The position numbers and the translations under genes are program-made. 64,000 bases of DNA, taken from the IMG/VR virus record IMGVR_UViG_3300025141_000030; one strand, given 5' to 3'. Position 1 is the first letter of the stretch, and each line of letters starts with the position of its first letter. Shown piece after piece: positions 3,228 to 62,255 of this stretch. The DNA comes from a virus. Below the pieces are notes generated by a model. It saw only the letters and a list, made by a program, of their open reading frames with translations, did no database searches and was not told the origin of the DNA.

Positions 3228-3295
3228 ATCGGTTTTTAGACTTTTAAACTCATAATTATAAAAGATTGCCTAGGCTTGTAAATTGGGAGACCCAC

Positions 3296-22686: not shown

Positions 22687-23886
22687 ATGCTGTTGCACAT
22701 TTCATCCAGGTTGGTCGACGGAAAGTGTGGGATTACATTCTCATGTGATGATTCTGTGACGAGTGAGTCCACACCACCCCCTGGCGCGTGGACAGTGGGT
22801 GATCCCAGCTCCCTTCTCCGCGTCGAGGACCTAGCCGCAGTCTCCGGTTTAGAGATTGACCTCAGCCCCCCACAGCAGTTTCTTCGCGCCGCCGCGACGG
22901 TCGCGCCACTCAAGTCTGTGCCCCTAAAGTGGATGATGCCCGGCGATGTGTACCAGGACTACCTTAGGAGGCTCAGGAATGACTCCTGGGACATCCTGGA
23001 GCGCGGGATGGTGGAATACTATCATTCTTATTTCGCGACCACCAGGGACCTCCTGAGAGCCCTTGAGAGCGCGTCCATTAATTCGGTCACTCTTCAAAAT
23101 TTTATGCAGGGCAGCATTTCCCCTGGCCAGCGATCTGTCATTGCGTCATTCCGACCAGACGACACCGGATTTGCGCCGCTTGTGCGATACAACCAGGTTG
23201 GCTCTAGGACAGGTCGCCTGACTGAACGTTCGGGTCCACAGATTCTTCGCCTCAAGAGAGATTTTCGATCCATAATTCAGTCTAGGTTCGACGGCGGTCA
23301 CATAGTGCAGGTGGACTTTGTCTCCCTGGAGGCACGTATTGCCGCTGCGCTTGGGGGTATGGTTCCAGAAAGGGATATCTACACGCAGCTCTCTAGGACA
23401 GTCTTTGAGAATCGATATCCCAGGAGTGCCGTTAAGCTTGCCTGCCTCTCAGTCATCTATGGTGCCGGCCGCAAGCGCCTCGCCTCTCAATTGTCTGTCA
23501 ACCTCGAAGCCGCCGGGGATATTATTGAAAGGATCTCACGGGCTTTTGATGTTAAGAAGGTGTCGATGGAGCTGCTGAAAGACGCCGTGGAGACCGGATC
23601 GATCTCCAATCACTTCGGTCGAAAGATGCTGGCGACTGACAAGTCATCCCATATACTCTATAATAACTTTATTCAGTCGACAGGGGTAGATGTTGCAATG
23701 CACGGATTCCAGCAGATCGTCACCCGACTGAAGGGAGATAAAATCGTTCCTATTTTTATCCTACATGATGCCATAATTTTCGATGTTCATTCGAACAGCA
23801 TGGAAACACTGCGAAAGCTGGCCAACTGCCACATGCAGATAGATGGCTTTGAAGTTCCATTCTATGTTGATGTTTCTGGCTTTTAG
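22687..23886 (+). CDS. Minimal family A DNA polymerase (polymerase domain only)
   Basis: 'RTGRL', motif A 'VQVDFVSLEARI', motif B 'RSAVKLACLSVIYG', 'NNFIQSTG.D', motif C 'ILHDAIIF'; no recognisable exonuclease domains. Confidence 0.8.
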   Translation: MLLHISSRLVDGKCGITFSCDDSVTSESTPPPGAWTVGDPSSLLRVEDLAAVSGLEIDLSPPQQFLRAAATVAPLKSVPLKWMMPGDVYQDYLRRLRNDSWDILERGMVEYYHSYFATTRDLLRALESASINSVTLQNFMQGSISPGQRSVIASFRPDDTGFAPLVRYNQVGSRTGRLTERSGPQILRLKRDFRSIIQSRFDGGHIVQVDFVSLEARIAAALGGMVPERDIYTQLSRTVFENRYPRSAVKLACLSVIYGAGRKRLASQLSVNLEAAGDIIERISRAFDVKKVSMELLKDAVETGSISNHFGRKMLATDKSSHILYNNFIQSTGVDVAMHGFQQIVTRLKGDKIVPIFILHDAIIFDVHSNSMETLRKLANCHMQIDGFEVPFYVDVSGF

Positions 23887-32159: not shown

Positions 32160-32177
32160 TCAAGTAAGGAGTGAGAA

Positions 32178-32606
32178 ATGAAAGATTGGATACCTCCAAA
32201 ATCTCCACACGGCCTGATCCAGGAAGATTTATGGCCAGACCCGTGGAAAATTTTAGTTGCCTGCCTGCTCTTAAATCTAACGACTCGAAAGCAGGTTGAC
32301 AAGGTAATTGATGGGCTTTTTGAACGATATCCAGCTCCCAGAAGCCTTGCCACTGCGCAAGAGGAAGATCTCCATGGCATGCTTCGCTCGCTAGGTATGT
32401 GGCGTAAGCGTGCTAAGACATTGATCCGGTTTTCTAATGAATTTTTAGAAGCAGACTGGACAACCGCAAAGGACCTTTATGGTTGCGGGAAGTATGCTGA
32501 CGACGCGTGGCATATTTTTTGCGTGGGAGACTGGCGGCAGGTTGCGCCCAGTGATCACGCCCTAAACGATTATCATAATTTTTTAAAGGATGAATTAGAT
32601 GCCTGA
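32178..32606 (+). CDS. MBD4-like HhH-GPD DNA glycosylase (stand-alone catalytic domain)
   Basis: 'W.PP.SP..LIQE.L..DPWK.L.A...LN.T', 'LG....RAKT...FS.E.L...W', HhH 'LYGCGKYADD', 'IFC...W.QV.P.DH.LN.Y...L' follow the MBD4 glycosylase domain end to end; no Fe-S cysteines. Confidence 0.85.
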   Translation: MKDWIPPKSPHGLIQEDLWPDPWKILVACLLLNLTTRKQVDKVIDGLFERYPAPRSLATAQEEDLHGMLRSLGMWRKRAKTLIRFSNEFLEADWTTAKDLYGCGKYADDAWHIFCVGDWRQVAPSDHALNDYHNFLKDELDA

Positions 32607-33408
32607 GGGTCCCGAGTGTCGTCAAATCGGTATCCAGCTCGCGAAGAGGGTCTCGAATAGAAAGCTGGTCGATATTAAGATACTGAGCGGCCGCTATGAG
32701 AAGCACGGCCCACCCACTGGCTTTGACAAGATAATGGAGTGGACTCCGATTGGAATTCAAGGGGCCGGGGTACACGGTAAGTTCTTATTCTTTCTATTGG
32801 ACGCCGAGTGGAGCATTTGGTCTACGTTAGGAATGACAGGTTCATGGACAAATGAGAAGAATGAGCTGCACAGTCGCATTGAATTTGTCTTAAATGACGG
32901 ATCAATATTTTTTACTGATTCTAGAAATTTTGGGACCCTTAAGTTTGTGCGGGGAAAACAGCAACTTATTGACAAGCTGGAGTCCTTAGGCCCAGATCTT
33001 CTTGCTGAGGAGATTGATGACTTTAAATTTGCTGAGCATCTCATGAGAAAAAAGACAAAGACAATCGCTCAGGCACTTATGGATCAGGGCGTTGTGTCTG
33101 GTATCGGCAACTATGTAAAAGCTGAAGCGCTATACAATGCTAAGATATCGCCTCATCGCTTAGTGTCAGATTTAGATATACATGAGATGTCTGCACTAAA
33201 TACGTCAATTCGAAAGGTCCTAGTTGAGAGCTTTGAGTCTGGCGGTGCAACAATTAAAACTTATGCTGACATGAACGGTAAAATAGGAGAGTTCAGTCAG
33301 CGATTTGCCGTGTATGGACAGCGAAGCGATCCGCTCGGCAATGATGTTGTCAAGGAAAAAACAAAGGATGGTAGGATGACACATTGGGTGCCGTCCATCC
33401 AGAGATAA
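32599..33408 (+). CDS. Fpg/Nei family DNA glycosylase/AP lyase, zincless-finger type
   Basis: N-terminal catalytic 'MPEGPE', 'GKFL', 'LGMTG', 'D.RNFG', 'LGPD', H2TH 'LMDQ..VSGIGN...AE.L', C-terminal 'GRMTHW.P..Q' without CxxC. Confidence 0.92.
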   Translation: MPEGPECRQIGIQLAKRVSNRKLVDIKILSGRYEKHGPPTGFDKIMEWTPIGIQGAGVHGKFLFFLLDAEWSIWSTLGMTGSWTNEKNELHSRIEFVLNDGSIFFTDSRNFGTLKFVRGKQQLIDKLESLGPDLLAEEIDDFKFAEHLMRKKTKTIAQALMDQGVVSGIGNYVKAEALYNAKISPHRLVSDLDIHEMSALNTSIRKVLVESFESGGATIKTYADMNGKIGEFSQRFAVYGQRSDPLGNDVVKEKTKDGRMTHWVPSIQR

Positions 33409-33420
33409 AAAGGAGAAAAA

Positions 33421-33648
33421 ATGGCATATAAATTGAGTGATAATGTTTTACGTAGGATTGTTCAGGTGATGCAGGAGGGCCTGCTGACAGGAACCGATAT
33501 TACCGATCACATGAGGATGATTCGACTTGAGGAAAATGTTGATGATACGACCCAGCTTGTTTTAACTGATGAGTACAAGGGGATTGTGGAGAATCAGCAT
33601 GAGACAATGCTTCATGAGATTGAGAATATTAAGACGTCGGAAAACTAA
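33421..33648 (+). CDS. Hypothetical protein
   Basis: 75 aa, AGGAG RBS, stop/start overlap with the next gene. Confidence 0.7.
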   Translation: MAYKLSDNVLRRIVQVMQEGLLTGTDITDHMRMIRLEENVDDTTQLVLTDEYKGIVENQHETMLHEIENIKTSEN

Positions 33649-34025
33649 TGAGTGAGGACAGGCTTAATGACCTCTTTGAGATGAGGATTAATTTTATGGA
33701 GGCAATTAAAAAGAGCCCTGTTAATGGGGCACCCCCCTGGCCGCTGGATCTTTCCACAAAGGAGCACCAGCAGTATGTCAGGGATATTGCACTTCGTGGT
33801 GTGGAGGAGATGTTTGAGGCACTCCAGCACCTCAAGAATTGGAAGCCCCATCGCCAGACATCAGTCACTGATTTTGACAAGGATGAGTTTTTGGAAGAGA
33901 TAGTTGACGCCTTTAATTACTTTTTTGAGCTGATTCTACTGGCAGGTTTTACGGCTGATGATTTTTTTGAGATGTATGTTAAGAAGGACAAGGTGATTCA
34001 TGAAAGACTTAAAGCCGGATATTAA
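33648..34025 (+). CDS. All-alpha NTP pyrophosphatase (dimeric dUTPase/MazG-like)
   Basis: 'EEMFEAL...NWKP' and 'EEIVDAFNYF' acidic metal-binding motifs. Confidence 0.75.
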   Translation: MSEDRLNDLFEMRINFMEAIKKSPVNGAPPWPLDLSTKEHQQYVRDIALRGVEEMFEALQHLKNWKPHRQTSVTDFDKDEFLEEIVDAFNYFFELILLAGFTADDFFEMYVKKDKVIHERLKAGY

Positions 34026-34965
34026 TTCATTTAATGGACTTCAGGCCGTCCAGCGTCAGTTTTCAGACCTATTTTTTAGTTCTGACCTCCTATCCGTCGA
34101 TGAGAAGGAGGAGATGACAAGGAGCTTTGCCTTGGCACTTCACAGTGAAGTTAGCTCACTTGTGGGTGAGATTAGTTTTAAGGATCACATAAACTCTGGC
34201 CGGTCCGTAAATACGAAAAAGATCCTGTATGAAAGTGTCGACGCCTTTCGTTATATTTTAGCTATTTTGAATTTATGGGGACATAGTTCTGATGATTTTC
34301 TTAGCGCATTTCAGAATAGGGATTCATTTCTTCATACTAGATTTGAGCTGGATAAGCGAAAATGGGAGGGGCAACCTGTTATTGTTGTTGATGTGGATGA
34401 GGTGATCTGTACGTTCAGAAAGGGATTCACTGAGTGGCTGATAGATGAGAAGGGCATTGATGTCGATGTTAATTCCAAGGAATATTATCACGTTGTGCCA
34501 ATTAAAGGTTCAGGTCATTCGCCGGAGGGCCTTTTTGAGGAGTTTATCGATTCAGGTCATTTAAGGGACCTAGACATCATCTCTGAGACTGTCGGCGTTT
34601 TAAATCAGCTTAAGCTAATGGGATTTTGGATTCACCTGCTGACTGCTCGTCCAGATAAAAACCTGCAGTGCCTCTATGACACTTACTACTGGCTGGAGAG
34701 GTCAGGTTTAAACTTTGATCGAGTTTCATTTTCACCTGAAAAAATGATCTGGCTTACAAAGACAGAATACTTTGAAAGCGAGTCTGTCGTTTGTGCCATT
34801 GATGATTCTGTGAAACACACCATGGAGTATGCAAAGCACGGTGTTAAAGTTGCATCACCTAAGATGTCATACAATAAGGAGCTTCGAAATCAGGAGAATG
34901 TGACAATTTACAAGACATCTCAAGAGTTGCTTGATACAATAACACAGTTATCGGGAATGAGATAG
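34000..34965 (+). CDS. MazG-like domain fused to a HAD 5'(3')-deoxyribonucleotidase
   Basis: N-terminal 'LHSEVSSL...FK.H' and 'YESVDAFRY'; C-terminal HAD motifs 'VDVDEVI', 'LLTAR', 'K', 'IDDS'. Confidence 0.7.
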   Translation: MKDLKPDINSFNGLQAVQRQFSDLFFSSDLLSVDEKEEMTRSFALALHSEVSSLVGEISFKDHINSGRSVNTKKILYESVDAFRYILAILNLWGHSSDDFLSAFQNRDSFLHTRFELDKRKWEGQPVIVVDVDEVICTFRKGFTEWLIDEKGIDVDVNSKEYYHVVPIKGSGHSPEGLFEEFIDSGHLRDLDIISETVGVLNQLKLMGFWIHLLTARPDKNLQCLYDTYYWLERSGLNFDRVSFSPEKMIWLTKTEYFESESVVCAIDDSVKHTMEYAKHGVKVASPKMSYNKELRNQENVTIYKTSQELLDTITQLSGMR

Positions 34966-35380: not shown

Positions 35381-35818
35381 TTGAAAGTTTACATTGCATC
35401 CCCATTTTTTAACCCCAAGCAGATTGATCAGGTCGAATATATTAAGGAGGCCCTCACCAAGTTGGGATATGAGTATTTTTCACCCAAGGATTATTTTGTT
35501 CTGGATCCTAATGCTACCGCCGAGGATCGAAAGAGGATCTTCGACGTGAATGTCGAGAAGATAGAGTGGGCAGATTTTGTCCTGTGTAATACAGAGGCCA
35601 AGGATCTTGGCACTATCTGGGAGGCTGGCTTTTCTCACGGTATTGGCAAGCCTGTCGTATTTTTTGCTGAGGGACTGCCGGATGGTAAGTTTAATGTCAT
35701 GCTCTCAGAGGCAGGAGTGTCAGTCAACACTTCTAGGGAGCAGCTTTATTCTTATCTTCTTGACTGTCGTGAGCAGGATTTTCTAATTAACATTCCATAC
35801 ACGGGGCAGACACAGTAA
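35381..35818 (+). CDS. Nucleoside 2-deoxyribosyltransferase / nucleotide N-hydrolase family protein (NDT/DNPH1/MilB-like)
   Basis: 'VYIASPFF', 'FSP', 'IF..N...I..AD', 'DLGTIWEAG', 'KPVV', 'NVML'; TTG start after GGAG. Confidence 0.85.
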   Translation: MKVYIASPFFNPKQIDQVEYIKEALTKLGYEYFSPKDYFVLDPNATAEDRKRIFDVNVEKIEWADFVLCNTEAKDLGTIWEAGFSHGIGKPVVFFAEGLPDGKFNVMLSEAGVSVNTSREQLYSYLLDCREQDFLINIPYTGQTQ

Positions 35819-36834
35819 TGATGTACAATAAACTAGAGTATGTTTGGATAGACGGCGGCATGCCGTGGGGAATTAGGTCTAAGATAAAGGTCGTGCCTGG
35901 TTTCGATCCTACTTTAGATGATGCCCCAACGTGGAGTTTTGACGGCTCTTCGACCCACCAGGCCACGGGTTCGGACTCTGACTGTATTTTAAAGCCAGTG
36001 AGAACGTATCCTCATCCCTATGCAGAGGATTCACTTATCGTTTTGTGCGAAGTGTTGACAGCACTGGGAGAGCCTCATGTTTCTAATCGAAGGACTGCGT
36101 TCTTAGATGTACTGGAAAAATATCGGGACGATGAGCCTTGGTTTGGGTTTGAGCAGGAGTACTCTATAATTCAAAATAATAGGCCTCTTGGATTTCCAGA
36201 CTTTGGCTTTCCCAGTCCTCAGGGAATCTACTACTGTTCAGTTGGCGGCGATCGATCTTTCGGTCGGCACATCGCTAACGCTCACCTAGATGCATGTCTC
36301 ATGGCGGGAATAAACATTTGTGGCACTAATGCCGAGGTTGCCCCGGGCCAGTGGGAGTTTCAGATCGGGGGTCCTAACATTGATGCTGATGTTGTGTGCG
36401 ACGATATGTGGGTGGCTCGATACCTGCTCCTTTACACGGCAGAGGAAGGCGGACTCACGGTTACTTTTGAACCTAAGTGTGTGCCTGGGGACTGGAATGG
36501 TGCCGGATGTCACACTAATTTTTCTACTAGTAAAATGCGTGAGCCCGGTGGCATGAAATACATAGAGGCCGCCTGTAACGCACTATCGGCCAGGACTAAG
36601 GAGCACCTAAGTAACTATGGAGATGATATTGAACTTCGACTGACAGGCGATCATGAGACCTGTTCATATCGAGAGTTTAAGTGGGGAGTCGCTGATCGGA
36701 CTGCTTCGATTAGGATTCCGCGACAGGCTGCGTTGGATGGAATGGGATATCTTGAGGATCGTCGCCCTAATGCTAATTGTGATCCTTATATTGTTGCCCG
36801 GTTAATGATTAAAACTGTGTGTGACGAGTTATAA
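35818..36834 (+). CDS. glnII: Glutamine synthetase type II
   Basis: 'EYVWIDG', 'RSK', 'WSFDGSST.QA.G..SD', 'PWFG.EQEY', 'YYC.VG', 'NAEV.PGQWEFQ.G', 'GDWNGAGCH.NFST', 'RLTG.HET', 'R.ASIRIPR', 'GYLEDRRP..N.DPY'. Confidence 0.95.
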   Translation: MMYNKLEYVWIDGGMPWGIRSKIKVVPGFDPTLDDAPTWSFDGSSTHQATGSDSDCILKPVRTYPHPYAEDSLIVLCEVLTALGEPHVSNRRTAFLDVLEKYRDDEPWFGFEQEYSIIQNNRPLGFPDFGFPSPQGIYYCSVGGDRSFGRHIANAHLDACLMAGINICGTNAEVAPGQWEFQIGGPNIDADVVCDDMWVARYLLLYTAEEGGLTVTFEPKCVPGDWNGAGCHTNFSTSKMREPGGMKYIEAACNALSARTKEHLSNYGDDIELRLTGDHETCSYREFKWGVADRTASIRIPRQAALDGMGYLEDRRPNANCDPYIVARLMIKTVCDEL

Positions 36835-36883: not shown

Positions 36884-37816
36884 ATGACAAATTGCAGCAA
36901 CGGATTTATGCACATTGGTGTAGAGCTTCTTGATTCCCCAGACATTCCATTTACAACTTTTTGGAATTGGTTTAGGCAGACGTGGATCAGTCTTCATGAT
37001 GAAGAGTACGACCACACTAATCCAGAGCATATTAAGGCATGCCATGATGTCGCCAACAGAAGGGCACTTCCTACTCCTATGGAGGCGACCACCTTTCAGT
37101 TTAAGGTGACCGGCCTGTCGAGGGTAGCTCTTGCACAGATTACCCGGGGTCGTGTTGGATGGGCCTATAACGTTGAGTCACAGATGCCCCAGCACATTCG
37201 GCATTCTGTGACCGTCCCTAGGAACATCTACGAGCATCCTGAGTTTGGTGAGAGGGCAAGGAATTTGACTAGCCAACTGCAGGGACTTTATGATGAGATG
37301 TACGATGCTGGTATTCCGCCACAGGACTGTCGCTACATGACAATGCACGGCCAACAGACTAGCATGGTTTTTCATGTTAACTACGCTGCCCTTTTGGGCT
37401 ATTTTGCTCGTCGATGTGAAAATGGCCTGACTGATGAACTGAATTTAGTCGGCAGGATGATGCGGCATGCCCTGATCACCACTCACCTCAATTCAGATGG
37501 GACAGACAAAATTCCTGGATCTGGCTGGTCATTTTTAATTGGTAAGCTAGAGGCAATGGGAGGTGATAAGGCTTGCCTTAATAACGACCTTGTATTCGGA
37601 AATACGGGCAGGTCCCCCGCAGCGGGTGCCTGGGTTCCTAACTTACTTGATGGAACTTGTGATTATGACTTCTCTAAGTCTGCCTGGTACTACGAGCTCT
37701 GCGAGCTTCCTGAGCATCTCCTCTTCCCCGGCGAGCAGGAGATGATTAACGATTTTAAGTCTGTAGGATTTATTGGTCGACTCCAAAAATTGGACTCGAC
37801 TGCCAACAATGGCTAA
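36884..37816 (+). CDS. Divergent ThyX-fold (flavin-dependent thymidylate synthase-like) protein
   Basis: 'TPME.T.F.F.V.GLSR....QITRGR........ESQ', 'Y..M...GIP.QD.RY', 'VN...L..Y..RR.'; the RHR motif reads RGR. Confidence 0.75.
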   Translation: MTNCSNGFMHIGVELLDSPDIPFTTFWNWFRQTWISLHDEEYDHTNPEHIKACHDVANRRALPTPMEATTFQFKVTGLSRVALAQITRGRVGWAYNVESQMPQHIRHSVTVPRNIYEHPEFGERARNLTSQLQGLYDEMYDAGIPPQDCRYMTMHGQQTSMVFHVNYAALLGYFARRCENGLTDELNLVGRMMRHALITTHLNSDGTDKIPGSGWSFLIGKLEAMGGDKACLNNDLVFGNTGRSPAAGAWVPNLLDGTCDYDFSKSAWYYELCELPEHLLFPGEQEMINDFKSVGFIGRLQKLDSTANNG

Positions 37817-38723: not shown

Positions 38724-39029
38724 ATGAGGCTAAGACAGTTCGCCGATGAATTAGGCATTTCATATTCGACTGCCCTTCGAATGTTTAGGAGGGATGAAAT
38801 TCCTGGTGCGTACAAGCTTCCTAGTGGCACAATTGTAATTCCTGAGGGCGCCATAGTGGCTCTAGGGCAACCCGATTTAGTTTCCGATGGAAACCTTATA
38901 GGTGCCATGGAGATCATTGAGGAGGCCTCTAGGGATGTCTTAGGGACTGAGGATGCCACTGATTTAATGCAGTTAATTCAGCGGGTTCTTGTGGAGTATA
39001 CTGGTGGGATAACTTATGACAGCGATTAG
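38724..39029 (+). CDS. MerR/excisionase-like winged-HTH protein (IS607 TnpA N-terminal-like, no recombinase domain)
   Basis: 'MRLRQFADELGISYSTALRMFRRDEIPGAYKLPSGTIVIP' matches the IS607 TnpA DNA-binding domain pattern; no YxRVS catalytic motif follows. Confidence 0.7.
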   Translation: MRLRQFADELGISYSTALRMFRRDEIPGAYKLPSGTIVIPEGAIVALGQPDLVSDGNLIGAMEIIEEASRDVLGTEDATDLMQLIQRVLVEYTGGITYDSD

Positions 39030-42000
39030 AGTCATAGAGGCCTCAGGGTCCAATGGTGCAATTCAGTTCGTTTCTGGCTCCGGTAATTTTGACGGAGATG
39101 CCCGCCTTGTATTTGACAGCACATCTGGCCTGCTGAAACTAACTGGGTCCCTTGAGTCCACACTTGGACTGAGCGGCTCCCTTACACAGCTCACCGACGG
39201 CACATCCTATCTCGTTGCTGGTGATAATATCACCATTGTGTCATCCTCTAACGGTGGAGTGACGCTTCACGCCGCCTCAAGCGGCGGCGGCGGGGCTGGA
39301 GATCCAAACGCATCTTTCGTGGTGATGTCCCTAACAGGATCACTTAATGCCGACAGGCAGCTGACAGCCGGCACTGGGTTAAACCTCAACGATGGGGGAG
39401 CCAAGGGTAACGTTACCTTTAGCGTAGATGACTCCACGGTTGCCACCATATCAGGCTCAACGTTTACGGGCGCCGTTGATTTTAATGCTGGCTTGAGCGG
39501 TTCACTTACACGACTTATTGGGGGTACCTCCTACCTGGTTGCCGGCAGTAACATCACCATCACCTCAGCATCCAATGGACAGGTCACCATCACGGGTCAA
39601 TCTGGTGACATAACAGACGTGACAGCCGGGACAGGCCTGACCGGTGGAGGATCATCAGGTGATGTCACCCTGGCTGCCGACGACTCCGTCGTCGCCACCC
39701 TGACAGGATCACAGTTCACCGGCCAGGTCGGCTTCCAGTCCAATGTGAGTACCAGCGGTTCTTTTATCGCCTCAGGTGACTCCACATTCTCAGGTCCGGT
39801 TTATCTGTCAGGCTCAGTTTCGGATTTCACTGCAACTGGTTCTGCCAAGTTCAATGCAGGTTTAAGCGGCTCCCTTACAAAGTTAGTGTCAGGACTGTCC
39901 TACCTGGTCGCTGGCTCGAACGTAACTATCACGTCGGCCTCCAACGGTCAGGTGACCATCGCCGGCACCGCCGGGGACATTACGTCAGTTACCGCAGGCA
40001 CAGGATTAACGGGTGGAGGATCGTCCGGGGATGTCACCCTAGGTGTTGATAATTCAGTTGTGGCCACCCTGACAGGATCCACTTTTACTGGGCCAGTGCA
40101 CCTATCAGGTTCAGTTTCTGATTTCGTTGCAACAGGTACTGTTCAGTTTAATGCGGGTCTTCGTGTTCCTGATAGTGCGGGTGATAATTTTTACACAGTC
40201 GCCGGCACATCATACAACATCGGATCAGATGTTACTGTTACTTTCCCCAACTTAACTGGTGATGATGAGCTCGTTACCCGAACTGCCACACAGGTCCTAA
40301 CCAATAAGACCCTGACCGCGCCTACTATTAATAATGCCCTCAACATAACAGCAGACGCAATTACAGGTTCGTATCTTCGAACGCTGGGTGACCTGAAGGT
40401 CGACGGTGATATGACGGTCTTTGGGACAGCATCGTTCGTTGACACTGAGCACATTCGTGTGGCTGATTCCTTAATCTTACTCAATTCTGGTGCAGTCGGT
40501 GCCAGGAGCGTCTCGGCCATTGCCTTCGCCTCCGGCTCAGCCACTGCCGACCAGGCATTCATCTTCGGTCCGGATGGTACTTCCACAGGTCCCCAACCAA
40601 CCTTCGCCTTCGCAAGGGTCGACGTTAAGGATGGTGCTCTCAACCCGGTCCTGGCATCCTTCAGCAACCTGGTCGATATTAAGGCAGCCGGCCTCAGCGG
40701 TTCCCTGACACGATTGTCAGACAACACATCCTACTTGGTCGCGGGAGACAACATAACAGTCACCTCGGCCTCCAATGGCCAGGTGACCATCGCAGGGACG
40801 GCTGGTGATATAACGGGAGTGGCGGCAGGTACTGGCTTAACAGGTGGGGGTACCTCCGGTGACGTCACACTGGCTGCCGACGACTCCGTCGTCGCCACCC
40901 TGACAGGATCACAGTTCACCGGCCAGGTCGGCTTCCAGTCTAACTTAAGTGTAACAGGTTCCGCACATTTTGCCGCCGGCTTGAGTGGCTCGTTAACACG
41001 GCTTATTGGTGGTGCCTCATACTTGGCCGCCGGCAGTAATGTCACTATCACATCAGCCTCTAACGGACAGGTGACCATCGCAGGAACGGCTGGTGACATT
41101 ACAGCTGTCACCGCTGGTACAGGCCTGTCCGGGGGCGGGACATCAGGTGACGTCGCTCTTGCGATAAGGGACTCCATAGTTGCTACCATATCAGGTTCCC
41201 AGTTCACCGGCCAGGTCGGGTTTCAGTCAAACCTCAGTGCATCTGGATCCTTAATAGCATCAGGAGACACGACGATTAACGGCCCAATATACCTGTCAGG
41301 CTCTGTCTCAGACTTTACTGCCACGGGTTCAGCTAGGTTCAATGCCGGACTAAGTGGCTCTTTGACACGATTGGTGGGTGGTGCTTCTTATATTGCCGCG
41401 GGTGACAACATAACGGTCACCTCAGCCTCTAATGGGCAAGTCATCATCTCTGGTCTTGCGGGTGATATTACATCGGTAACTGCTGGGACTGGACTGACAG
41501 GGGGCGGTGCCTCAGGCGATGTCACCCTTGCCGTTGATGACTCTGCAGTTGCCACCCTGACAGGATCACAGTTCACCGGCCAGGTTGGCTTCCAGTCCAA
41601 TCTTAGTGCATCTGGATCCTTAATCGCCTCGGGTGATACGACATTTAGCGGTCCAGTTTATCTGTCTGGATCAGTTTCGGACTTCACCGCTACTGGATCT
41701 GCTTCATTTAATGCTGGATTAAGCGGTTCACTCACACGACTCACTAGTGGTACCTCTTACTTGGCTGCTGGTTCTAATGTAACGATTACTTCTGCATCTA
41801 ACGGCCAGGTAACGATTGCCTCCTCCGGCGGAGGTGGAAGTATTTCGATATCGTCTGGCTCAACGACAGTGGGAACTGTTAGTAGTATAGACCTTTCACA
41901 GATGGGACTAGTTCAGAACCTAGGTGGGGGAAATGTTGCCGTTACCGGAGCAATAGGAAGCGCCGAGGACGGAACTTATACAGACGGCCTTTTTACTGAT

Positions 42001-45000
42001 TTTACTACGTCGACGCCTATAGGCACGGCTATTGATAAGTTTAATGAGGTCCTTAAGGCACTGTCACCGACGCCTGCTCCCGATTTAGATAATATTAACT
42101 CGACCGAAACTGGTGTGACTGCCAGCCTTTCGTTTGGCGCATCTTCCGCTGTGGGTGGGTATACATCTGTAGGCTCATCAGCAGGTGTGGAATCAGCCGT
42201 AGACATTAATGGAATGTACGCAGTTGTTACGGCAAGTAATAATATTCGTGCCGCAGTTTTTGCCAAGGACACTGCCATAACAGGCACATTAAATTCAGAT
42301 ATTGCTGCCAATAATTACACTAACGGTAACACTAATTACGCTACATCATCCTTTGGAAATGCTGAAATAGGCGTTTTACGATTGGATGTAAATGGAACAG
42401 TTCAAAAGGAGATTGATCTAACCGTTGGGTCAATAGGTGAGGGCGTTCCAGGATCTGGAATTGGTAGGTATGTCAATAGCAATGGTTCAGGTTTCATTGA
42501 TTTCTCTCAGTCTGGATCTGCGGTATTTGAGAATGGAAATACGCTGGTGGCGTTTAAGCACAGGACGGGCAAGTTTGTTGTCGATGATGATGATCAGCGA
42601 AATGGTTGGAACTATGTAAAGGTCCTACATGTTATGACGGGGAATACTATCACCACCAACTACGTGGAGTGGGTTAATGATTCCAACAGCGATGCTCTCG
42701 CTGCTTCCAATCAAAGGTGGGATGGCTTCGATCTAGAGAGGGGACTCTTTGTATCAGGAATTGAGTTTTATGTTAGTGGAAATGCTGACTATAAGGTCGA
42801 TGTCTCCAATGTGTATAAAAACGTCTATCAGTTTGATGCGAGTGCCTCTTACACGACTACTAATTGTACCATTGGTTCCAGCGCTATTCCAATAATTGAT
42901 TATGGGGCTGGCGAAAATAACACCAAGGTGCTGATGCTGACAGGATCGGCATCTATTTCTACGACATCCCTCTTTAATCAGGGGCTGACTTCGTCTGTAT
43001 CCGTGCCACATCCCTTGAAGGCTAACCTCACCAACGGAGGCCAGGCTGACACCGGGGGGATCCTGCTCTACTCCGCGTCCAACACATCCACCGATCAGTC
43101 CGAGACATTTACGCGCGAAAATTACAGGCTTGTCTCAGCATCATACGGCGCCCAGGCTGATGTAACTAACGTTGGTTCTGTGTGGGATTCCACTATACAC
43201 CTTTCAGGCGCCGCTGACCAGACTGACGGCCTTATTTTCTTCTATGGTGATTTGAAATCTCCTCTTAATAATACACTTTCTGGAGATTTTAGGTCTACAT
43301 CGGATGGTGGCAGCATCACTTACGCGCCGACATCAAACCCAAATTATAGCACTCTTACTGGGATAAGGACATTTTATAGGGCATTTAAAAATGAGACCGG
43401 AGGCGCTGTTCGTGATCTTTCCCTAGATATCGACGGCACAGGCACCATAACACAGCAATACGGATCTCTCGGCACTTCCGGACTAAGTGTGCTTATGAAG
43501 TTTCCGGATAATGGCACTTATGAGACTGGCTGGCTCGACGTCTCCCAGGCTTTTGCATTAGAGAGCTATTCTGACGGCGACGGATGCCTTGAGGGGTCGT
43601 TGGACAGCAGTCTAGACGCGACTAACATTGTGACATTCGGATCCCAGTCACTTGCCAATAATGAGTATGTCGTCTTAAAGATTGAAGCTAGTGCATCGTG
43701 GACTGGGAATGCTGATCAAATATCTGTCTCGTTTGGAGCTGGCACTGGTGCTGCGCCCTCTTCGGCCCCTGATCTCGATGACATTGACTCCAATAATACC
43801 GGAACCGCCTGTAAGCTTTCGTTTGGAACTTCGAAGGGTATTACGGGATACACAGACGTTGAGGCATCAGCAGGAATGGGAAGTGCTGTTAACGTAAACG
43901 GTGATTATACAGTCACTAATTCTGGTAATAATCTTAGGAGAGCGGCATTTGGCGGAGACTCGGCGATAGTTGATATAACTGGAGACTTAAATGAGGATGT
44001 AGGCTCAAGCACTCCAAGCTATTCTGCTAACGCTTTTGGCGACGCGCTCAATGGAACTCTTCGACTGGAAGTTAACGGGTCTGTTGTCCACACCACCACG
44101 TTGACATCTAGTTTTGGTTCTGGAGTGCCTGGTTCTGGAGGAGCCTCGGACTTAAATGCTAATGGCTCTGGATTTACTAACATTAGCGTTCCTACTGCAG
44201 GTGAGTACAGCGGAAATAGTGTCTCTGACTACACTAAGATATACCGCACAGGTCGATTTAAGGTGGATACAAATGACCAGAGGCAGGGATGGAACTATGT
44301 TCGTGTCCAACATGTTGCTCCTGGTGGTACCACTATTACGAACTATGCGGAGTGGGTTAACGATTCAAACACAAGTGCCCTGGCATCGTCTAATGAGATT
44401 TTGCATAACTTCTCGGGATCCAGTTTCTATTACCAGTCTGGTGTGAAATATTTTCAGACGTGCTCTTCTAGTTACATTGCACAGGTTGCGAATGTTTATA
44501 AGAATGTCTTCTCTAGGTCATCGACAGCTATCACTACGTCTACCAGCAACTTGACAGTTAATAGCATCTACGTGAGCGGCTCAGGTGTGGATGCAGGCAG
44601 CGTCAGTTCATCCTCTCGAGCGCTGCCTGATCTTCGCACATCTGCAGATTCCCAGGATGCTGACATATTCGTTACAGCATCGGTTACTTTTAGTCGGTCG
44701 TCGGCAGTCCCGGGCACGTATGGAACATCTAATTACACCGCTTCGGCCCAGTTGACTGCGAAACATCCGCTTAAGTCTAACGTGACATCGACTCAGAAGT
44801 CGACTAATAATTTCCTGGTTCATTCTGCCTCACTCACTTCTAACCTGTATACAAATGAATATTTTACGCGGGAGGATTATAGGATCCAGTCAGGCACTTA
44901 CCTGACCCAGGGCTCGATCGGATCAGGAGGCTGGGTGTCTTCCACTTCAATAGATGACGCAGGATCTCCCACATACCAGACCGGCCTATTGACATATAAT

Positions 45001-45519
45001 GGTTACTTGATTCCCCCTGATGAGGGCGGCTCCTCCGGTGACTTTAGAAATTTGGACGAGGGAGGCAGCCTCCAGTCACCTGTAGGTAACGTAAATTACA
45101 GCTCAGTGACTGTTAGCGTTCGGGATTATTATAGGATCTTTGAAAATAACACCACCAATGATGTGGGAAGTATTACTGTTACCTTGTACGGCGATGCTAC
45201 TATTGTGGGCCGACTTGGCACGAATGCTGGCACGCTCGGCGCTAATAAAAATGTTTATGTGGATGTTAAGATTCCTGGCGATTGTGGATTCCTCGACCTG
45301 GGACGCCCCACGGCCGGTTCAGGTAATGTATCGGATGGTGATGGGTGCTTGGTGGGTTCGCTAGATGGCACTGTCGTATCCGACGGAACGTCCAATACAG
45401 CATCATTTAATGGTGTCGCCCTCGCTGGAACGATATCAGGCGCTGAGCAGATGGTAATAAGAGTTAGCACTCATAAAAACTGGACGGGATACTTAACACG
45501 TATCACGATTGCGTATTAG
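39016..45519 (+). CDS. Giant Gly/Ser/Thr-rich tail-fibre or virion-appendage protein
   Basis: 2167 aa; N-terminal half of repeated 'GLSGSLT.L...SYL.AG.N.TI.S.SNG' and 'GDIT.V.AGTGL.GGG.SGDVTL' modules; C-terminal half is two ~560-aa homologous domains. Confidence 0.65.
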   Translation: MTAIRVIEASGSNGAIQFVSGSGNFDGDARLVFDSTSGLLKLTGSLESTLGLSGSLTQLTDGTSYLVAGDNITIVSSSNGGVTLHAASSGGGGAGDPNASFVVMSLTGSLNADRQLTAGTGLNLNDGGAKGNVTFSVDDSTVATISGSTFTGAVDFNAGLSGSLTRLIGGTSYLVAGSNITITSASNGQVTITGQSGDITDVTAGTGLTGGGSSGDVTLAADDSVVATLTGSQFTGQVGFQSNVSTSGSFIASGDSTFSGPVYLSGSVSDFTATGSAKFNAGLSGSLTKLVSGLSYLVAGSNVTITSASNGQVTIAGTAGDITSVTAGTGLTGGGSSGDVTLGVDNSVVATLTGSTFTGPVHLSGSVSDFVATGTVQFNAGLRVPDSAGDNFYTVAGTSYNIGSDVTVTFPNLTGDDELVTRTATQVLTNKTLTAPTINNALNITADAITGSYLRTLGDLKVDGDMTVFGTASFVDTEHIRVADSLILLNSGAVGARSVSAIAFASGSATADQAFIFGPDGTSTGPQPTFAFARVDVKDGALNPVLASFSNLVDIKAAGLSGSLTRLSDNTSYLVAGDNITVTSASNGQVTIAGTAGDITGVAAGTGLTGGGTSGDVTLAADDSVVATLTGSQFTGQVGFQSNLSVTGSAHFAAGLSGSLTRLIGGASYLAAGSNVTITSASNGQVTIAGTAGDITAVTAGTGLSGGGTSGDVALAIRDSIVATISGSQFTGQVGFQSNLSASGSLIASGDTTINGPIYLSGSVSDFTATGSARFNAGLSGSLTRLVGGASYIAAGDNITVTSASNGQVIISGLAGDITSVTAGTGLTGGGASGDVTLAVDDSAVATLTGSQFTGQVGFQSNLSASGSLIASGDTTFSGPVYLSGSVSDFTATGSASFNAGLSGSLTRLTSGTSYLAAGSNVTITSASNGQVTIASSGGGGSISISSGSTTVGTVSSIDLSQMGLVQNLGGGNVAVTGAIGSAEDGTYTDGLFTDFTTSTPIGTAIDKFNEVLKALSPTPAPDLDNINSTETGVTASLSFGASSAVGGYTSVGSSAGVESAVDINGMYAVVTASNNIRAAVFAKDTAITGTLNSDIAANNYTNGNTNYATSSFGNAEIGVLRLDVNGTVQKEIDLTVGSIGEGVPGSGIGRYVNSNGSGFIDFSQSGSAVFENGNTLVAFKHRTGKFVVDDDDQRNGWNYVKVLHVMTGNTITTNYVEWVNDSNSDALAASNQRWDGFDLERGLFVSGIEFYVSGNADYKVDVSNVYKNVYQFDASASYTTTNCTIGSSAIPIIDYGAGENNTKVLMLTGSASISTTSLFNQGLTSSVSVPHPLKANLTNGGQADTGGILLYSASNTSTDQSETFTRENYRLVSASYGAQADVTNVGSVWDSTIHLSGAADQTDGLIFFYGDLKSPLNNTLSGDFRSTSDGGSITYAPTSNPNYSTLTGIRTFYRAFKNETGGAVRDLSLDIDGTGTITQQYGSLGTSGLSVLMKFPDNGTYETGWLDVSQAFALESYSDGDGCLEGSLDSSLDATNIVTFGSQSLANNEYVVLKIEASASWTGNADQISVSFGAGTGAAPSSAPDLDDIDSNNTGTACKLSFGTSKGITGYTDVEASAGMGSAVNVNGDYTVTNSGNNLRRAAFGGDSAIVDITGDLNEDVGSSTPSYSANAFGDALNGTLRLEVNGSVVHTTTLTSSFGSGVPGSGGASDLNANGSGFTNISVPTAGEYSGNSVSDYTKIYRTGRFKVDTNDQRQGWNYVRVQHVAPGGTTITNYAEWVNDSNTSALASSNEILHNFSGSSFYYQSGVKYFQTCSSSYIAQVANVYKNVFSRSSTAITTSTSNLTVNSIYVSGSGVDAGSVSSSSRALPDLRTSADSQDADIFVTASVTFSRSSAVPGTYGTSNYTASAQLTAKHPLKSNVTSTQKSTNNFLVHSASLTSNLYTNEYFTREDYRIQSGTYLTQGSIGSGGWVSSTSIDDAGSPTYQTGLLTYNGYLIPPDEGGSSGDFRNLDEGGSLQSPVGNVNYSSVTVSVRDYYRIFENNTTNDVGSITVTLYGDATIVGRLGTNAGTLGANKNVYVDVKIPGDCGFLDLGRPTAGSGNVSDGDGCLVGSLDGTVVSDGTSNTASFNGVALAGTISGAEQMVIRVSTHKNWTGYLTRITIAY
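39670..40940 (+). repeat. 71-bp exact direct repeat (39670-39740 = 40870-40940) within degenerate fibre repeats
   Basis: ctggctgccgacgactccgtcgtcgccaccctgacaggatcacagttcaccggccaggtcggcttccagtc occurs twice, 1200 bp apart; close variants near 41551 and 46522. Confidence 0.9.
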
Positions 45520-45528
45520 GTGAATTAG

Positions 45529-48123
45529 ATGGCTGGAAAGACAGATAGAACACAGCTTCAGTTCCTCTTTAAGAAGGCGCTAGGTTTTGCCAACACGTCT
45601 AACTTGTTCACTGAGAACGAGGAGACAATTCCCTCCACGAATCAATTGTCCACGCAGACGATCTTTGGTGAGGACATTCCACGCGCTGTCAGTAGGACGC
45701 TTTACACTGTCCAGGACTCTACTGCTGAATACGTTATCCTAACGGCATCAGTCCTGGCAGGCACCACATATGATGCCAATGACACCGGCGGCGGGGGTGA
45801 TGGCTCACAGTCGCCAGGTCCACACGCGTACGCCTTCCAGCTAGCTGGCGACTATCAGGCCAGTTCTAGCAATGCGAAGGCTGGCACATTTCCATTTGTG
45901 GACAGTCAGTATCTCTACCAGACATCCGGAACACTTCAGTTAATTGGCCCATCATTTTCAGGTAACTCTCCCAACCCTTATTTGATGAAACTTTATGAGG
46001 ATGATGGTTCCGGAGGCATTGGCGATGAAATATCACTGACAGATGAGATCGACTGGTTGGTGGACTATTATAACGGTGTCCTATTTGTGCAGGATTATGA
46101 CAGCGGCCAGCTCCCGGCGTTTGCCAAGGCTTTCATTTATACTGGAAATATGCTCAGCGCCTCCATTGGTGGTGGCGGTTCTGGTGACATAACTGGTGTG
46201 ACCGCTGGCACCGGCCTGTCAGGTGGCGGGTCGTCAGGTAATGTTACACTTTCAATCAACGACTCGACAGTTGCTACGCTGAGCGGATCTATTTTTTCAG
46301 GGGTTGCAAAGTTTAATTCTGGACTTAGCGGGTCATTAACCCGTCTAGTTGACGGCACATCATTCCTCGAGGCCGGCAGTAACGTTACGATCACATCAGC
46401 TTCCAACGGGCAGATAACCATTGCATCCACAGGTGGAGGAGGCGGAGGTGACATAACTGGAGTGGCAGCCGGTACTGGTCTGACGGGAGGTGGGACATCA
46501 GGTGACGTCACTCTGGCCGCAGACGACTCCGTCGTCGCCACGCTGACCGGCTCTCAGTTTACTGGCCAGGTCGGATTCCAGTCAAATGTCAGTGCCAGCG
46601 GCTCCTTTATAGCTTCAGGTGATTCCACTCTTTTAGGTCCGGTTTACCTATCAGGCTCTGTCTCTGACTTTACAGCCACGGGTTCCGCCAAGTTCAATGC
46701 AGGTTTAAGTGGCTCCTTGACGAGATTAGCATCGGGACTGTCATTCCTTGAGGCCGGCACTAATGTGACTATTACCTCGGCTTCAAATGGATCAATAACT
46801 ATATCAGCAGCCGGCTCAGGTGGCGGATCATCCTCTGGAGTAGGATGGATTGGTCGAAGTTCAGGGCAGATAGACACTACTGGCTCTGTGGGAATAACCG
46901 GATCACTTCATGCGCTAGGAAGTAATATTTTCGGCTCATCACCGTCGAATTTTCATATCATTACGGGATCCGCCATACTGTCGGGAGCTCTCAGCATATC
47001 CGGAACACTGAGCATGTCAGGATCCATTATACCAGCCAGCGCATCGGCATTTGACCTGGGCAGCGCTACATATCCTTGGAAAGAGCTTTACCTGGCCGGA
47101 AATTCCCTTCATCTCGGAGGACAGACAGTCACGGCCGGTACTAACACTATATCTTATGGTGCTGGTGCAACTGAGAAGAAGTTTATTGTGGGCAATCTTG
47201 CCCTTTCTAGCTCTATTATTACTGGTGGCAATAATGCCGATCTGCGCCTCATAGGTCCCAGTTTTTTTGGGGGCACCGCCAATGTGCTTATTCAAACGAC
47301 TCGTGCACAAGTTTCAGGTGTCTTGGATGTCAAAAATGGAATATCAGGCTCTCTCACAAGACTGCCTACTGGCGCCTCATTTATCGAAGCAGGTGATAAT
47401 GTAACGGTGACCTCGGCCTCTAACGGAGCAATTACGATCGCCGCCGACGGAGGTGGCAGCGGTGATATAACAAACGCCAGTAATCTCGGGTCTGGAGAAG
47501 GCCTGTTTGCGCAGAAGACAAGCACAGTCTTGGACTTTAAGGGCCTGACAGTGGGATCTGGCCTCAATATATCCTCTAATACTACGACTGTCACCTTGAC
47601 AACTAACTTTGACAGTCTTGCCAGGCAGAAGGGGACATACGAGGTGACCCAGTCACATGCCGCTAATACTCCGTTAGTTGTAGGTGCTGATTTTAGTGCT
47701 GCGGCCTATAACCCTAACCTAATTGATGTTTTCTTGAATGGCCAGCTTCTTGCGTCCGGCACCCAGGTGCAAGTTAGCGCAGGCACAGCTGATTACACGC
47801 TTTATGCAACAGACAGCGTAAAATTTGGATTTGTCCTAGATCGTGACGACACGGTCAACTCTATTATTATTAATAACAGTGCAGCTGGCGGCGGCTCGAC
47901 TAGTCTAACACTTAATGAAACGCCTGCTGGCACCGTTAACGGGGTGAATGACACATTCACACTTGGTACGACCCCCTCACCTTCTTCGAGCCTTATGTTA
48001 TTTATAAACGGGCAATTAATTACGCAAAATGTCGACTATACTTTATCCACCGCCACAATAACATTTGTGGCCTCTGCCATCCCCATGAGTGGCGATGTGC
48101 TAGCGGCTACATACCAATATTAG
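45529..48123 (+). CDS. Fibre-like virion protein sharing repeat modules with the upstream gene
   Basis: 864 aa; same GLSGSL/AGTGL modules; C-terminal 'VFLNGQLL' and 'ETPAGTVNGVN.TFTL...P....L.LF.NGQL......DYT' beta-sandwich-type domains. Confidence 0.65.
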   Translation: MAGKTDRTQLQFLFKKALGFANTSNLFTENEETIPSTNQLSTQTIFGEDIPRAVSRTLYTVQDSTAEYVILTASVLAGTTYDANDTGGGGDGSQSPGPHAYAFQLAGDYQASSSNAKAGTFPFVDSQYLYQTSGTLQLIGPSFSGNSPNPYLMKLYEDDGSGGIGDEISLTDEIDWLVDYYNGVLFVQDYDSGQLPAFAKAFIYTGNMLSASIGGGGSGDITGVTAGTGLSGGGSSGNVTLSINDSTVATLSGSIFSGVAKFNSGLSGSLTRLVDGTSFLEAGSNVTITSASNGQITIASTGGGGGGDITGVAAGTGLTGGGTSGDVTLAADDSVVATLTGSQFTGQVGFQSNVSASGSFIASGDSTLLGPVYLSGSVSDFTATGSAKFNAGLSGSLTRLASGLSFLEAGTNVTITSASNGSITISAAGSGGGSSSGVGWIGRSSGQIDTTGSVGITGSLHALGSNIFGSSPSNFHIITGSAILSGALSISGTLSMSGSIIPASASAFDLGSATYPWKELYLAGNSLHLGGQTVTAGTNTISYGAGATEKKFIVGNLALSSSIITGGNNADLRLIGPSFFGGTANVLIQTTRAQVSGVLDVKNGISGSLTRLPTGASFIEAGDNVTVTSASNGAITIAADGGGSGDITNASNLGSGEGLFAQKTSTVLDFKGLTVGSGLNISSNTTTVTLTTNFDSLARQKGTYEVTQSHAANTPLVVGADFSAAAYNPNLIDVFLNGQLLASGTQVQVSAGTADYTLYATDSVKFGFVLDRDDTVNSIIINNSAAGGGSTSLTLNETPAGTVNGVNDTFTLGTTPSPSSSLMLFINGQLITQNVDYTLSTATITFVASAIPMSGDVLAATYQY

Positions 48124-48175
48124 AAGAAGAATTCTCTCTTTTTTAATATTTAACATTGGATATCGAGAGCATGAA

Positions 48176-48400
48176 ATGAACAACACATTTGAGACGTCTG
48201 ACCTAGCATTTGCAGCATTCCTGTGTATGCGGGGATTTCGCCTGACACAGGCAACGAGGGATCCCACTGGTCGCTTTAGGTTTGTTTTTGATGATCCCAC
48301 TGCGTCCGCCGCTGGAATGCAGGCAGTTTTTCTAGCTTCAGAGTTTCCAATTTTCGATAATTTTGTCAAAATACTGAAGAAACGAATATATACTAATTGA
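48176..48400 (+). CDS. Small conserved phage protein (DUF5659-like)
   Basis: 74 aa; 'FETSDLAFAAFL...G..L.......GR..F.F' pattern. Confidence 0.55.
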   Translation: MNNTFETSDLAFAAFLCMRGFRLTQATRDPTGRFRFVFDDPTASAAGMQAVFLASEFPIFDNFVKILKKRIYTN

Positions 48401-48567
48401 TGGCCTTTGCTATCTCGACGTTGAAGTTTTTTTATTCGTTCCGTCCTAAGTTTTTTGTAAAAGTCTTGTTTCCTTGTTGCGGTTTATGTACGGCTGTTTG
48501 TCTATTGTAGTATTTAAGTTCTTAGTTTTGCCATTAACGCTTAATAAACCTATAGGAGGAATAAAAA

Positions 48568-61666: not shown

Positions 61667-61855
61667 GTGGAAATAATGATTGTAGTACTTTGTATCGCCG
61701 CCGCATTCTACGCCTGGAGTCGATCGAGAATGTCGACGCATCTCCTGAGGTTTCAAATTTATGTCCTGTCAAAGAGTATAACAGAATCCCTTCACCGCAC
61801 TGAAGAGAATTGTCGACAGATGGAGGGTAATAATGAGCCGCCCGACATGGGATGA
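61667..61855 (+). CDS. Small membrane protein
   Basis: 62 aa, hydrophobic N-terminus, AGGA RBS. Confidence 0.4.
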   Translation: MEIMIVVLCIAAAFYAWSRSRMSTHLLRFQIYVLSKSITESLHRTEENCRQMEGNNEPPDMG

Positions 61856-62255
61856 GATCTGGATGGGCGTTGCGATGATAATCGCCCGAAGGTCGGTCGA
61901 TCCAAGGAATAAGGTGGGCGCCGTCATTGTCAACCATGACGGTACACAGGTTCTCTCCGTGGGATATAATGGTGATTATAAGGGAGGGCCTAATATTGTA
62001 GAGTCTCACGATCCCGGGGAGTCAGGCATGATACACGCCGAGATTAATGCGCTCATTAAGCTGGACTACAACTATCCTCAGGACAAGGTGATGTACCTGA
62101 CACTGTCTCCATGTCGAATGTGTGCCAAGTCCATTGTTAACGCTGGAATTGGTGAGGTGGTCTACAGTCAGGAGTATCGAGACACCTCAGGAGTGGACAT
62201 ACTTCAGGCCGCTGGGATAAAAGTCAGGAAGTTCCCTTCGGATAACAATATTTAA
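61833..62255 (+). CDS. dCMP deaminase (ComEB-like)
   Basis: 'KVGAVIV', 'GYNG', Zn motifs 'HAEINA' and 'SPCRMC'. Confidence 0.92.
   Translation: MSRPTWDEIWMGVAMIIARRSVDPRNKVGAVIVNHDGTQVLSVGYNGDYKGGPNIVESHDPGESGMIHAEINALIKLDYNYPQDKVMYLTLSPCRMCAKSIVNAGIGEVVYSQEYRDTSGVDILQAAGIKVRKFPSDNNI

Follow-up and report, generated by a model that had tools for sequence, protein, structure and literature searches.

The open reading frame at positions 32178-32606 was confirmed as a real and conserved gene for a stand-alone, Fe-S-free DNA glycosylase of the MBD4 type, belonging to a large family that occurs in marine jumbo myoviruses. The glycosylase is predicted to be active and monofunctional. We consider it rather probable that it works together with a coupled Nei protein in the repair of deamination damage, guarding a genome that probably contains C5-modified cytosines. 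Here, the window is the whole 64-kb stretch of viral DNA that was analysed, and its parent contig of 141 kb represented about half of the estimated genome. Related contigs reached 281 kb at 92% estimated completeness, and the relatives were therefore jumbo phages. The gene and its putative ribosome-binding site were as follows:

32178..32606, + strand: MBD4-type HhH-GPD DNA glycosylase, 142 aa, catalytic domain only (PDB phmmer, AF2/Foldseek, 467 homologue clusters)
32166..32171, + strand: Shine-Dalgarno-like AAGGAG, 6 nt 5' of the glycosylase ATG (read from the sequence)

The reading frame started with an ATG codon, and a sigma-70 promoter scan directly 5' of position 32178 found no convincing site. 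A ClpP gene was located upstream, separated by a gap of 48 nt. In a phmmer search of the PDB sequences, residues 2-138 aligned without gaps to the glycosylase domain of human/mouse MBD4 (E 6.2e-39 for 4dk9) with 42-45% identity, and all the MBD4 catalytic-domain motifs that the initial annotation had listed were present in this alignment. The runner-up families in the same search were far weaker, namely Nth (E 4e-5), MIG (1kea, 6.6e-3) and MutY (0.5). The general HhH-GPD model was the only Pfam match (33 bits), and the PHROGs contained no family for this protein. Since the 142-aa product was the catalytic domain alone and the methyl-CpG-binding domain was absent, its description as a stand-alone enzyme held. 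The window also encoded two tail-sheath proteins, a gp19-type tube and a T4-type baseplate protein, in agreement with the initial assignment to a tailed phage. The two sheath paralogues were adjacent (3266-6391 and 6435-9476; 1041 and 1013 aa), with sheath domains detectable only at their ends.

Grouping of the protein with Nth or MIG, which the initial annotation had named as the outcome that would speak against it, was ruled out by the PDB phmmer search, maximum-likelihood (ML) trees and Foldseek; the protein grouped with MBD4 instead. The MIG, Nth and MutY enzymes belong to the same HhH-GPD superfamily, and MIG likewise excises T and U from mispairs with G, but their similarity to the phage protein was weak (E 4e-5 to 7e-3, TM ~0.6) and they carry a Cys4 Fe-S loop.

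The AF2 model of the glycosylase, built on 27 family members, had a mean pLDDT of 95.4. The first 16 Foldseek ranks were all MBD4 structures (TM 0.92-0.96, rmsd 0.9-1.5 A), among them T:G and 5hmU:G complexes, and the next matches were MutY and MIG at TM ~0.6. Human MBD4 numbering corresponded to phage numbering plus 434, which was checked at four residues named in PMC3479182. Residue counts were taken from the columns of 275 aligned phage and eukaryote sequences, with 120 marine and 139 eukaryotic copies. The following codons of the active site and the DNA-binding loop could be located:

32553..32555, + strand: catalytic Asp126 (human Asp560), identical throughout the 275-sequence alignment of phages and eukaryotes
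32220..32222, + strand: Gln15 (human Gln449), reader of N3/O2 of the flipped pyrimidine, invariant in 120/120 marine copies
32493..32495, + strand: Tyr106 (human Tyr540), at the HhH position of the Nth Schiff-base Lys, invariant in the marine copies
32271..32288, + strand: minor-groove loop Leu32-Asn-Leu-Thr-Thr-Arg37 (human 466-471, L-N-R-T-S-G; column counts, 275 sequences)

The roles of Gln449, Tyr540, Asp560, Asn467, Thr469 and the intercalating loop have been described for MBD4, and the human Q449A mutant was inactive (PMC3479182). The equivalents of Asn467 and Thr469 were invariant in the 120 marine copies. The HhH hairpin was formed by G102-C-G104-K-Y106, and Asp126 was located about 20 residues beyond it, in agreement with the catalytic Asp after the HhH in the initial annotation, and was invariant in the 120 family members. 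That annotation was also right about the missing Fe-S cluster. The protein stopped 16 residues past the catalytic Asp and had only three scattered Cys residues (29, 103 and 115), which left no room for the Cys4 Fe-S loop that Nth, MutY and MIG have at their C-terminus, and the corresponding Cys-X6-Cys-X2-Cys-X5-Cys pattern was absent. The position of Nth Lys120 was occupied by Tyr106, like Tyr540 in MBD4, rather than by Lys. Since monofunctional HhH enzymes have the Schiff-base Lys replaced (PMC8307549), the phage enzyme should be monofunctional as well.

The loop and the pocket differed from those of MBD4 at three positions. The Arg468 finger, which occupies the space that the flipped base vacates, was absent, with Leu34 in its place. 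The marine copies had Leu (103), Gln (14) or Met (3) at this position; Leu was also found in XP12-type phages and in the cyanophage S-TIM54, and 109 of the 139 eukaryotic copies had Lys or Arg. The pocket residue Gly471, mostly kept in eukaryotic copies, was replaced by Arg (R37) in the marine copies and by Trp in the XP12-type ones. Similarly, Lys562 was replaced by Ala (A128) in the marine copies and was kept in the XP12-type copies. Arg37, three residues along the same loop, may serve as a stand-in for the Arg468 finger. With Leu for Arg468, Arg for Gly471 and Ala for Lys562, the substrate range or the DNA binding of the phage enzyme may differ from those of MBD4.

In comparison to mammalian MBD4/MED1 (4DK9, 4E9E, 4EVV, 4EW0, 1NGN, 6VJW), the phage protein thus had the same fold, catalytic Asp, Gln/Tyr readers, Asn-x-Thr loop core and HhH hairpin, and likewise no Fe-S cluster and no Schiff-base Lys. 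Unlike mammalian MBD4, it had no MBD or linker, carried Leu468, Arg471 and Ala562 and was coupled to Nei. Plant MBD4L (Arabidopsis MBD4-like) is reportedly a eukaryotic MBD4 glycosylase without the MBD and with a long N-terminal region. It resembles the phage enzyme in that an MBD4 catalytic domain works without a methyl-CpG-binding domain, but the phage protein did not have the long N-terminal region.

Downstream, the glycosylase gene overlapped a second repair gene and was followed by a gene of nucleotide metabolism:

32599..32606, + strand: 8-nt overlap ATGCCTGA, with the Nei start inside the end of the glycosylase gene (read from the sequence)
32599..33408, + strand: predicted zincless Fpg/Nei-family glycosylase/AP lyase, 269 aa, N-terminus Met-Pro-Glu-Gly-Pro-Glu (Pfam, PDB match)
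33648..34025, + strand: MazG/dimeric-dUTPase-like nucleotide pyrophosphohydrolase (Pfam dUTPase_2, PHROG 'nucleotide pyrophosphohydrolase')

Judging from the overlap, the glycosylase and Nei genes are translationally coupled. The Nei protein matched the Pfam domains Fapy_DNA_glyco, H2TH and Fapy_DNA_glyco_C (zincless model), and its best PDB match was 3a45 (E 1.4e-36), which we take to be mimivirus Nei1. The residues P2, E3, K61, N171 and R259, which include the conserved Lys and the finger Arg, were invariant in 12 relatives, and the H2TH motif was present. There was no Cys4 zinc finger, and the C-terminus read ...DGR(M/T)THW.P..Q.

Gene context was counted in 116 marine loci (94 distinct proteins) that were gathered from IMG/VR and JGI metagenomes. 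Of the 65 distinct loci with enough flanking sequence, 57 had a Nei gene at most 2.3 kb downstream of the MBD4-like one, and in 35 the two were directly adjacent. The MazG-like gene was a conserved companion of these two, following the MBD4-like gene within 3.3 kb in 37/51 loci, and the whole block was in conserved synteny with RecA, FEN, DnaB, class II RNR and ClpP. In four near-identical loci (L028-L031, 10449-11222), the Nei reading frame taken from the first ATG/GTG/TTG lacked the N-terminal Met-Pro-Glu-Gly-Pro-Glu; these loci may use another start codon or encode an inactive Nei.

The initial annotation had also suggested that the phage may carry modified cytosine. For the family, the tie of the MBD4-like gene to modified cytosine was strongly supported, by the operons of XP12-type phages and by 16 marine loci; for this phage itself, the support was indirect and its 64 kb did not confirm the tie. 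Among 50,697 cultured-phage records, all 13 matches that covered at least 80% of the glycosylase came from XP12-type siphoviruses; a megablast of 12 kb against cultured phages gave no match. Every C of XP12 is replaced by 5mC (PMC7653180; PMC9206674). In XP12-type phages, the MBD4-like gene was the first gene of the 5mC synthesis operon, and in XP12, AXL1 and Donnerlittchen it was followed by genes for a pyrophosphohydrolase, a ThyA homologue ('thymidylate synthase'), dCMP deaminase and DHFR. The ThyA homologues of these three phages and of S-TIM54 had Asp at E. coli position 177. An Asp at this residue switches a ThyA-type enzyme from dUMP to dCMP (PMC8670742), and the product of the XP12 enzyme is 5mdCMP (bioRxiv 10.1101/2024.12.05.627091).

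The glycosylases of these phages were annotated as 'ENDO3c domain' proteins (XP12 QNN97216, AXL1 gp65) or 'endonuclease III' (Donnerlittchen), and the AXL1 copy was described only as an ENDO3c / Endo III-like domain with unclear function (PMC9206674). They belonged to the same family as the phage protein (44-46% identity) and were stand-alone enzymes with Leu468. The XP12-like copies differed in their length of ~160 aa with an N-terminal extension, in Trp471 and Lys562 and in having no Nei partner. Their carriers were siphoviruses of soil and plant bacteria in which cytosine is replaced by 5mC.

The marine relatives extended this association. Downstream sequence of 6 kb or more was available for 31 marine loci, and in 16 of them a ThyA homologue was encoded right after the DnaE polymerase gene. 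The best PDB matches of these homologues were the CMP hydroxymethylase MilA and the T4 dCMP hydroxymethylase, and all 16 had D143, T147, D169 and D177. Published residue rules for assigning ThyA homologues are available (PMC8670742, PMC13326640), and by those of PMC13326640 this combination is the hydroxymethylase pattern, which makes the 16 proteins predicted hydroxymethylases. The Asp177 ThyA homologue of the cultured cyanophage S-TIM54 (L046, OP053362.1 145421-146233), which kept His147, hints at modified cytosine in this phage too. The S-TIM54 MBD4-like gene itself (L041 3992-4378) was more distant, truncated and fast-evolving. On the other hand, a phage-like 100-kb contig (L131) with an MBD4-like homologue had no ThyA homologue on it.

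The window represented a second type of locus, with two features of particular relevance:

36884..37816, + strand: divergent ThyX-like protein, in the slot of the relatives' Asp177 ThyA homologues (Pfam Thy1, 70 bits)
61833..62255, + strand: dCMP-deaminase-family protein (PHROG dCMP deaminase, E 2e-47; 35% identical to the XP12 operon deaminase)

In the window and 10 other loci, the glycosylase-Nei-MazG trio was followed by a MazG-HAD fusion, a divergent ThyX-like protein and a deoxyribosyltransferase-like protein. The ThyA type and the divergent-ThyX type were mutually exclusive, with both present in 0/27 loci. A canonical ThyX (~165 bits, RHR...S.R motif) was found in relatives of both types, and records of the second type had it together with the divergent copy (55-70 bits). 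The divergent copies, ~310-340 aa long, had a deletion of ~24 residues around the S-x-R loop and an extra C-terminal part of ~100 aa; the copy in the window read R-G-R rather than R-H-R and had no sequence match in the PDB. Since the relatives encoded a canonical ThyX alongside it, the divergent copy was unlikely to be the housekeeping thymidylate synthase. We infer that it would be a non-orthologous replacement of the dCMP-modifying enzyme, and the family is a candidate new pyrimidine-modifying enzyme. Pairs of ThyX-like family members were located at 14877-15848 and 3322-4035 of one relative (L010) and at 13058-14029 and 8492-9181 of another (L093).

The MazG-HAD fusion (34000-34965) joined a MazG/dUTPase_2-like domain to a HAD domain and was found only in the ThyX-type lineage. 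Its HAD part had a weak NT5C match and matched the PHROGs 'unknown' and 'polynucleotide kinase'. The fusion could be a pool-editing nucleotidase, or else a DNA 3'-phosphatase that clears the 3'-phosphate left by Nei. The gene for the nucleoside 2-deoxyribosyltransferase-like protein (35381-35818, 145 aa) abutted a gene for a short glutamine-synthetase-like protein (35818-36834, 338 aa) within the nucleotide cluster, and a glutamine-synthetase-like gene was near the MBD4-like gene in 13 relatives too, at other positions.

The main alternative is that cytosine is canonical in this phage and that the MBD4-like protein and Nei perform housekeeping base excision repair with no link to modification, clearing U (and occasional T) opposite G as well as oxidised pyrimidines. 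Such lesions could arise, for example, from UV light and oxidation in surface sea water. In favour of this alternative, neither a D177 ThyA homologue nor a DNA C5-methyltransferase, nor any other gene with a proven role in cytosine modification, was identified in the 64-kb window. The genes after DnaE in the window encoded thymidine kinase, a DHH protein and dCMP deaminase; the first and the last of these, like a ThyX-family gene, were as expected for a normal dTMP supply, which counts against a modified base. Moreover, the glycosylase-Nei-MazG trio was common to both module types and was thus independent of the ThyA homologue, and MBD4 enzymes excise U:G well (PMC3458566). However, the family tracked cytosine-modifying enzymes wherever the base chemistry was readable, and the separate canonical ThyX of the ThyX-type relatives meant that the divergent copy was not needed for dTMP. 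The lineage also added the MazG-HAD fusion and the deoxyribosyltransferase-like hydrolase, a kind of pool editing that is typical of base replacement. We regard housekeeping repair as a minority explanation, to be taken seriously but improbable.

Deamination of 5mC, 5hmC and C produces T, 5hmU and U opposite G, of which T and 5hmU escape UNG. Under the preferred reading, that is, repair of deamination in a genome with C5-modified cytosines, the products would thus be thymine-like bases that are invisible to UNG. The glycosylase would grip duplex DNA through the HhH hairpin and the loop of residues 32-37 and would flip out a uracil-type base from a mispair with G, either T, U or 5-hydroxymethyl-U or a related U substituted at position 5. 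Gln15 and Tyr106, together with the main chain at residue 14, would read the flipped base, and Asp126 would hydrolyse the glycosidic bond. Since the Schiff-base Lys was missing, an abasic site should be left, on which the glycosylase may stay after excision. The zincless Nei, with its intact N-terminal Pro/Glu, could then cut the abasic site by beta,delta-elimination and free the glycosylase. The original G:C-type pair would finally be re-established by the polymerase and ligase of the phage. In mammalian demethylation, TDG is a product-inhibited monofunctional mismatch glycosylase that hands off to the AP lyase NEIL1/2. The mammalian proteins are encoded by separate genes with no genetic coupling, whereas the phage pair, for which a physical hand-off is proposed, was joined by the 8-nt overlap.

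The deamination itself might be spontaneous or might be caused by an enzyme of the phage, namely an m/hmC-preferring member of the dCMP-deaminase family acting on single-stranded DNA. A gene of this family was present both in the XP12 operon and at 61833-62255 of the window. Members of this family from 5mC phages have been reported to act on both 5mC and 5hmC when the DNA is single-stranded (bioRxiv 10.1101/2024.12.05.627091), which suggests that the deaminase that endangers the phage DNA may be the phage's own.

The substrate logic of MBD4 (U, T and hmU opposite G) would also suit a counter-defence role, in which the glycosylase-Nei pair mends damage inflicted by host DNA cytosine deaminases, in keeping with the deaminase-type attack suggested in the initial annotation. 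However, this logic was all that spoke for such a role. The neighbours of the gene, in conserved synteny, belonged to replication and nucleotide metabolism rather than to early anti-defence functions, and the gene co-occurred with the phage's own nucleotide-modifying genes, so we consider counter-defence very improbable. An offensive or pool-policing role, likened to that of the cytosine-specific nucleases of T4, in which the altered-pocket glycosylase and the AP lyase attack unmodified host DNA or phage DNA with the wrong canonical pyrimidine, would fit the pocket and loop differences from MBD4 at L34, R37 and A128 and the tight coupling to a strand-cutting Nei, but it is just as hard to credit given that the uracil-face readers Gln15 and Tyr106 were conserved, as were the elements recognising the orphan G, and that the XP12-type copies kept Lys562 and had no Nei partner.

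Homologues of the repair glycosylase were abundant in metagenomes. Among proteins of similar length, we obtained 467 homologue clusters at 90% identity. At E<=1e-3 there were 3,255 representatives; most of the 203 at E<=1e-30 were long proteins from eukaryotes that carried the domain C-terminally. The long homologues that could be named were eukaryotes (Chara, Chlorokybus, Prasinoderma, Cyanophora, Ceratiomyxa and a copepod). When the gene at the end of the window was used to scan metagenomes, there was no match. Two pattern-based scans of limited sensitivity, run on 185,579 prokaryote species (GTDB) with a single genome per species, returned two contigs only, and the first of the scans gave no match. 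One contig (L130, NYZO01000017.1) was a 6.4-kb piece of an 'archaeon' MAG, and its other genes matched this phage family. The other was the contig without a ThyA homologue mentioned above (L131, JAJFIR010000058.1), 100.8 kb from an 'Emcibacteraceae' MAG with SbcCD-like, FEN, endolysin-amidase and dCMP-deaminase genes. Both were probably mis-binned phage DNA or a prophage.

In ML trees, the glycosylase was placed with MBD4 and far from Nth, and the marine copies formed one group. Rooting with E. coli Nth and a MutY-like protein of an archaeal virus gave branches of 4-10 changes per site. Because of this long-branch warning, the root of the tree was not used. The marine and XP12-type phages formed one clade against the eukaryotes in 22% of bootstrap trees (AU p 0.46), which neither shows nor rejects such a grouping; the Leu468 common to the phage copies favours it. 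The gene had also been proposed to be relevant to the origin of eukaryotic MBD4. This relevance is real, since phages and eukaryotes were the only holders found, but the tree gave no direction of transfer. Combining the separate lines, we tentatively propose that the MBD4-like protein and the zincless Nei form a dedicated repair module of cytosine-replacing phages, that the modified base in the lineage of the window comes from a divergent enzyme derived from ThyX, which took the place of the Asp177 ThyA homologue, and that the phage branch, with Leu468 and a bulky residue 471 in marine and XP12-type phages alike, is either sister to the MBD4 catalytic domain of eukaryotes or its source. As a joint statement, this is possible but doubtful.

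No description of a phage MBD4 was found in the literature searched. The catalytic domain of MBD4, considered 'eukaryotic', has an extensive branch in phages, with hundreds of clusters. Its genetic tie to cytosine replacement would offer a concrete answer to the UNG-invisible deamination products in 5mC and 5hmC phages. The hard-wired glycosylase-Nei pair may serve as a natural model for the hand-off from a mismatch glycosylase to NEIL. Moreover, these enzymes are small and highly conserved and differ in their intercalation loop, which makes them possible reagents for the detection of T:G and hmU:G, and the split between the ThyA and ThyX types points to a possibly new pyrimidine-modifying enzyme.

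Two polymerases were encoded in the window, a DnaE-type Pol III alpha (56196-59750, 1184 aa) and a 399-aa protein (22687-23886) that matched family A polymerases in its C-terminal part only. In the relatives, DnaE was located 1-8 kb after the MBD4-like gene. In the window, giant reading frames (2167, 864 and 1521 aa; 39016-53133) of no clear family lay between the nucleotide cluster and DnaE.
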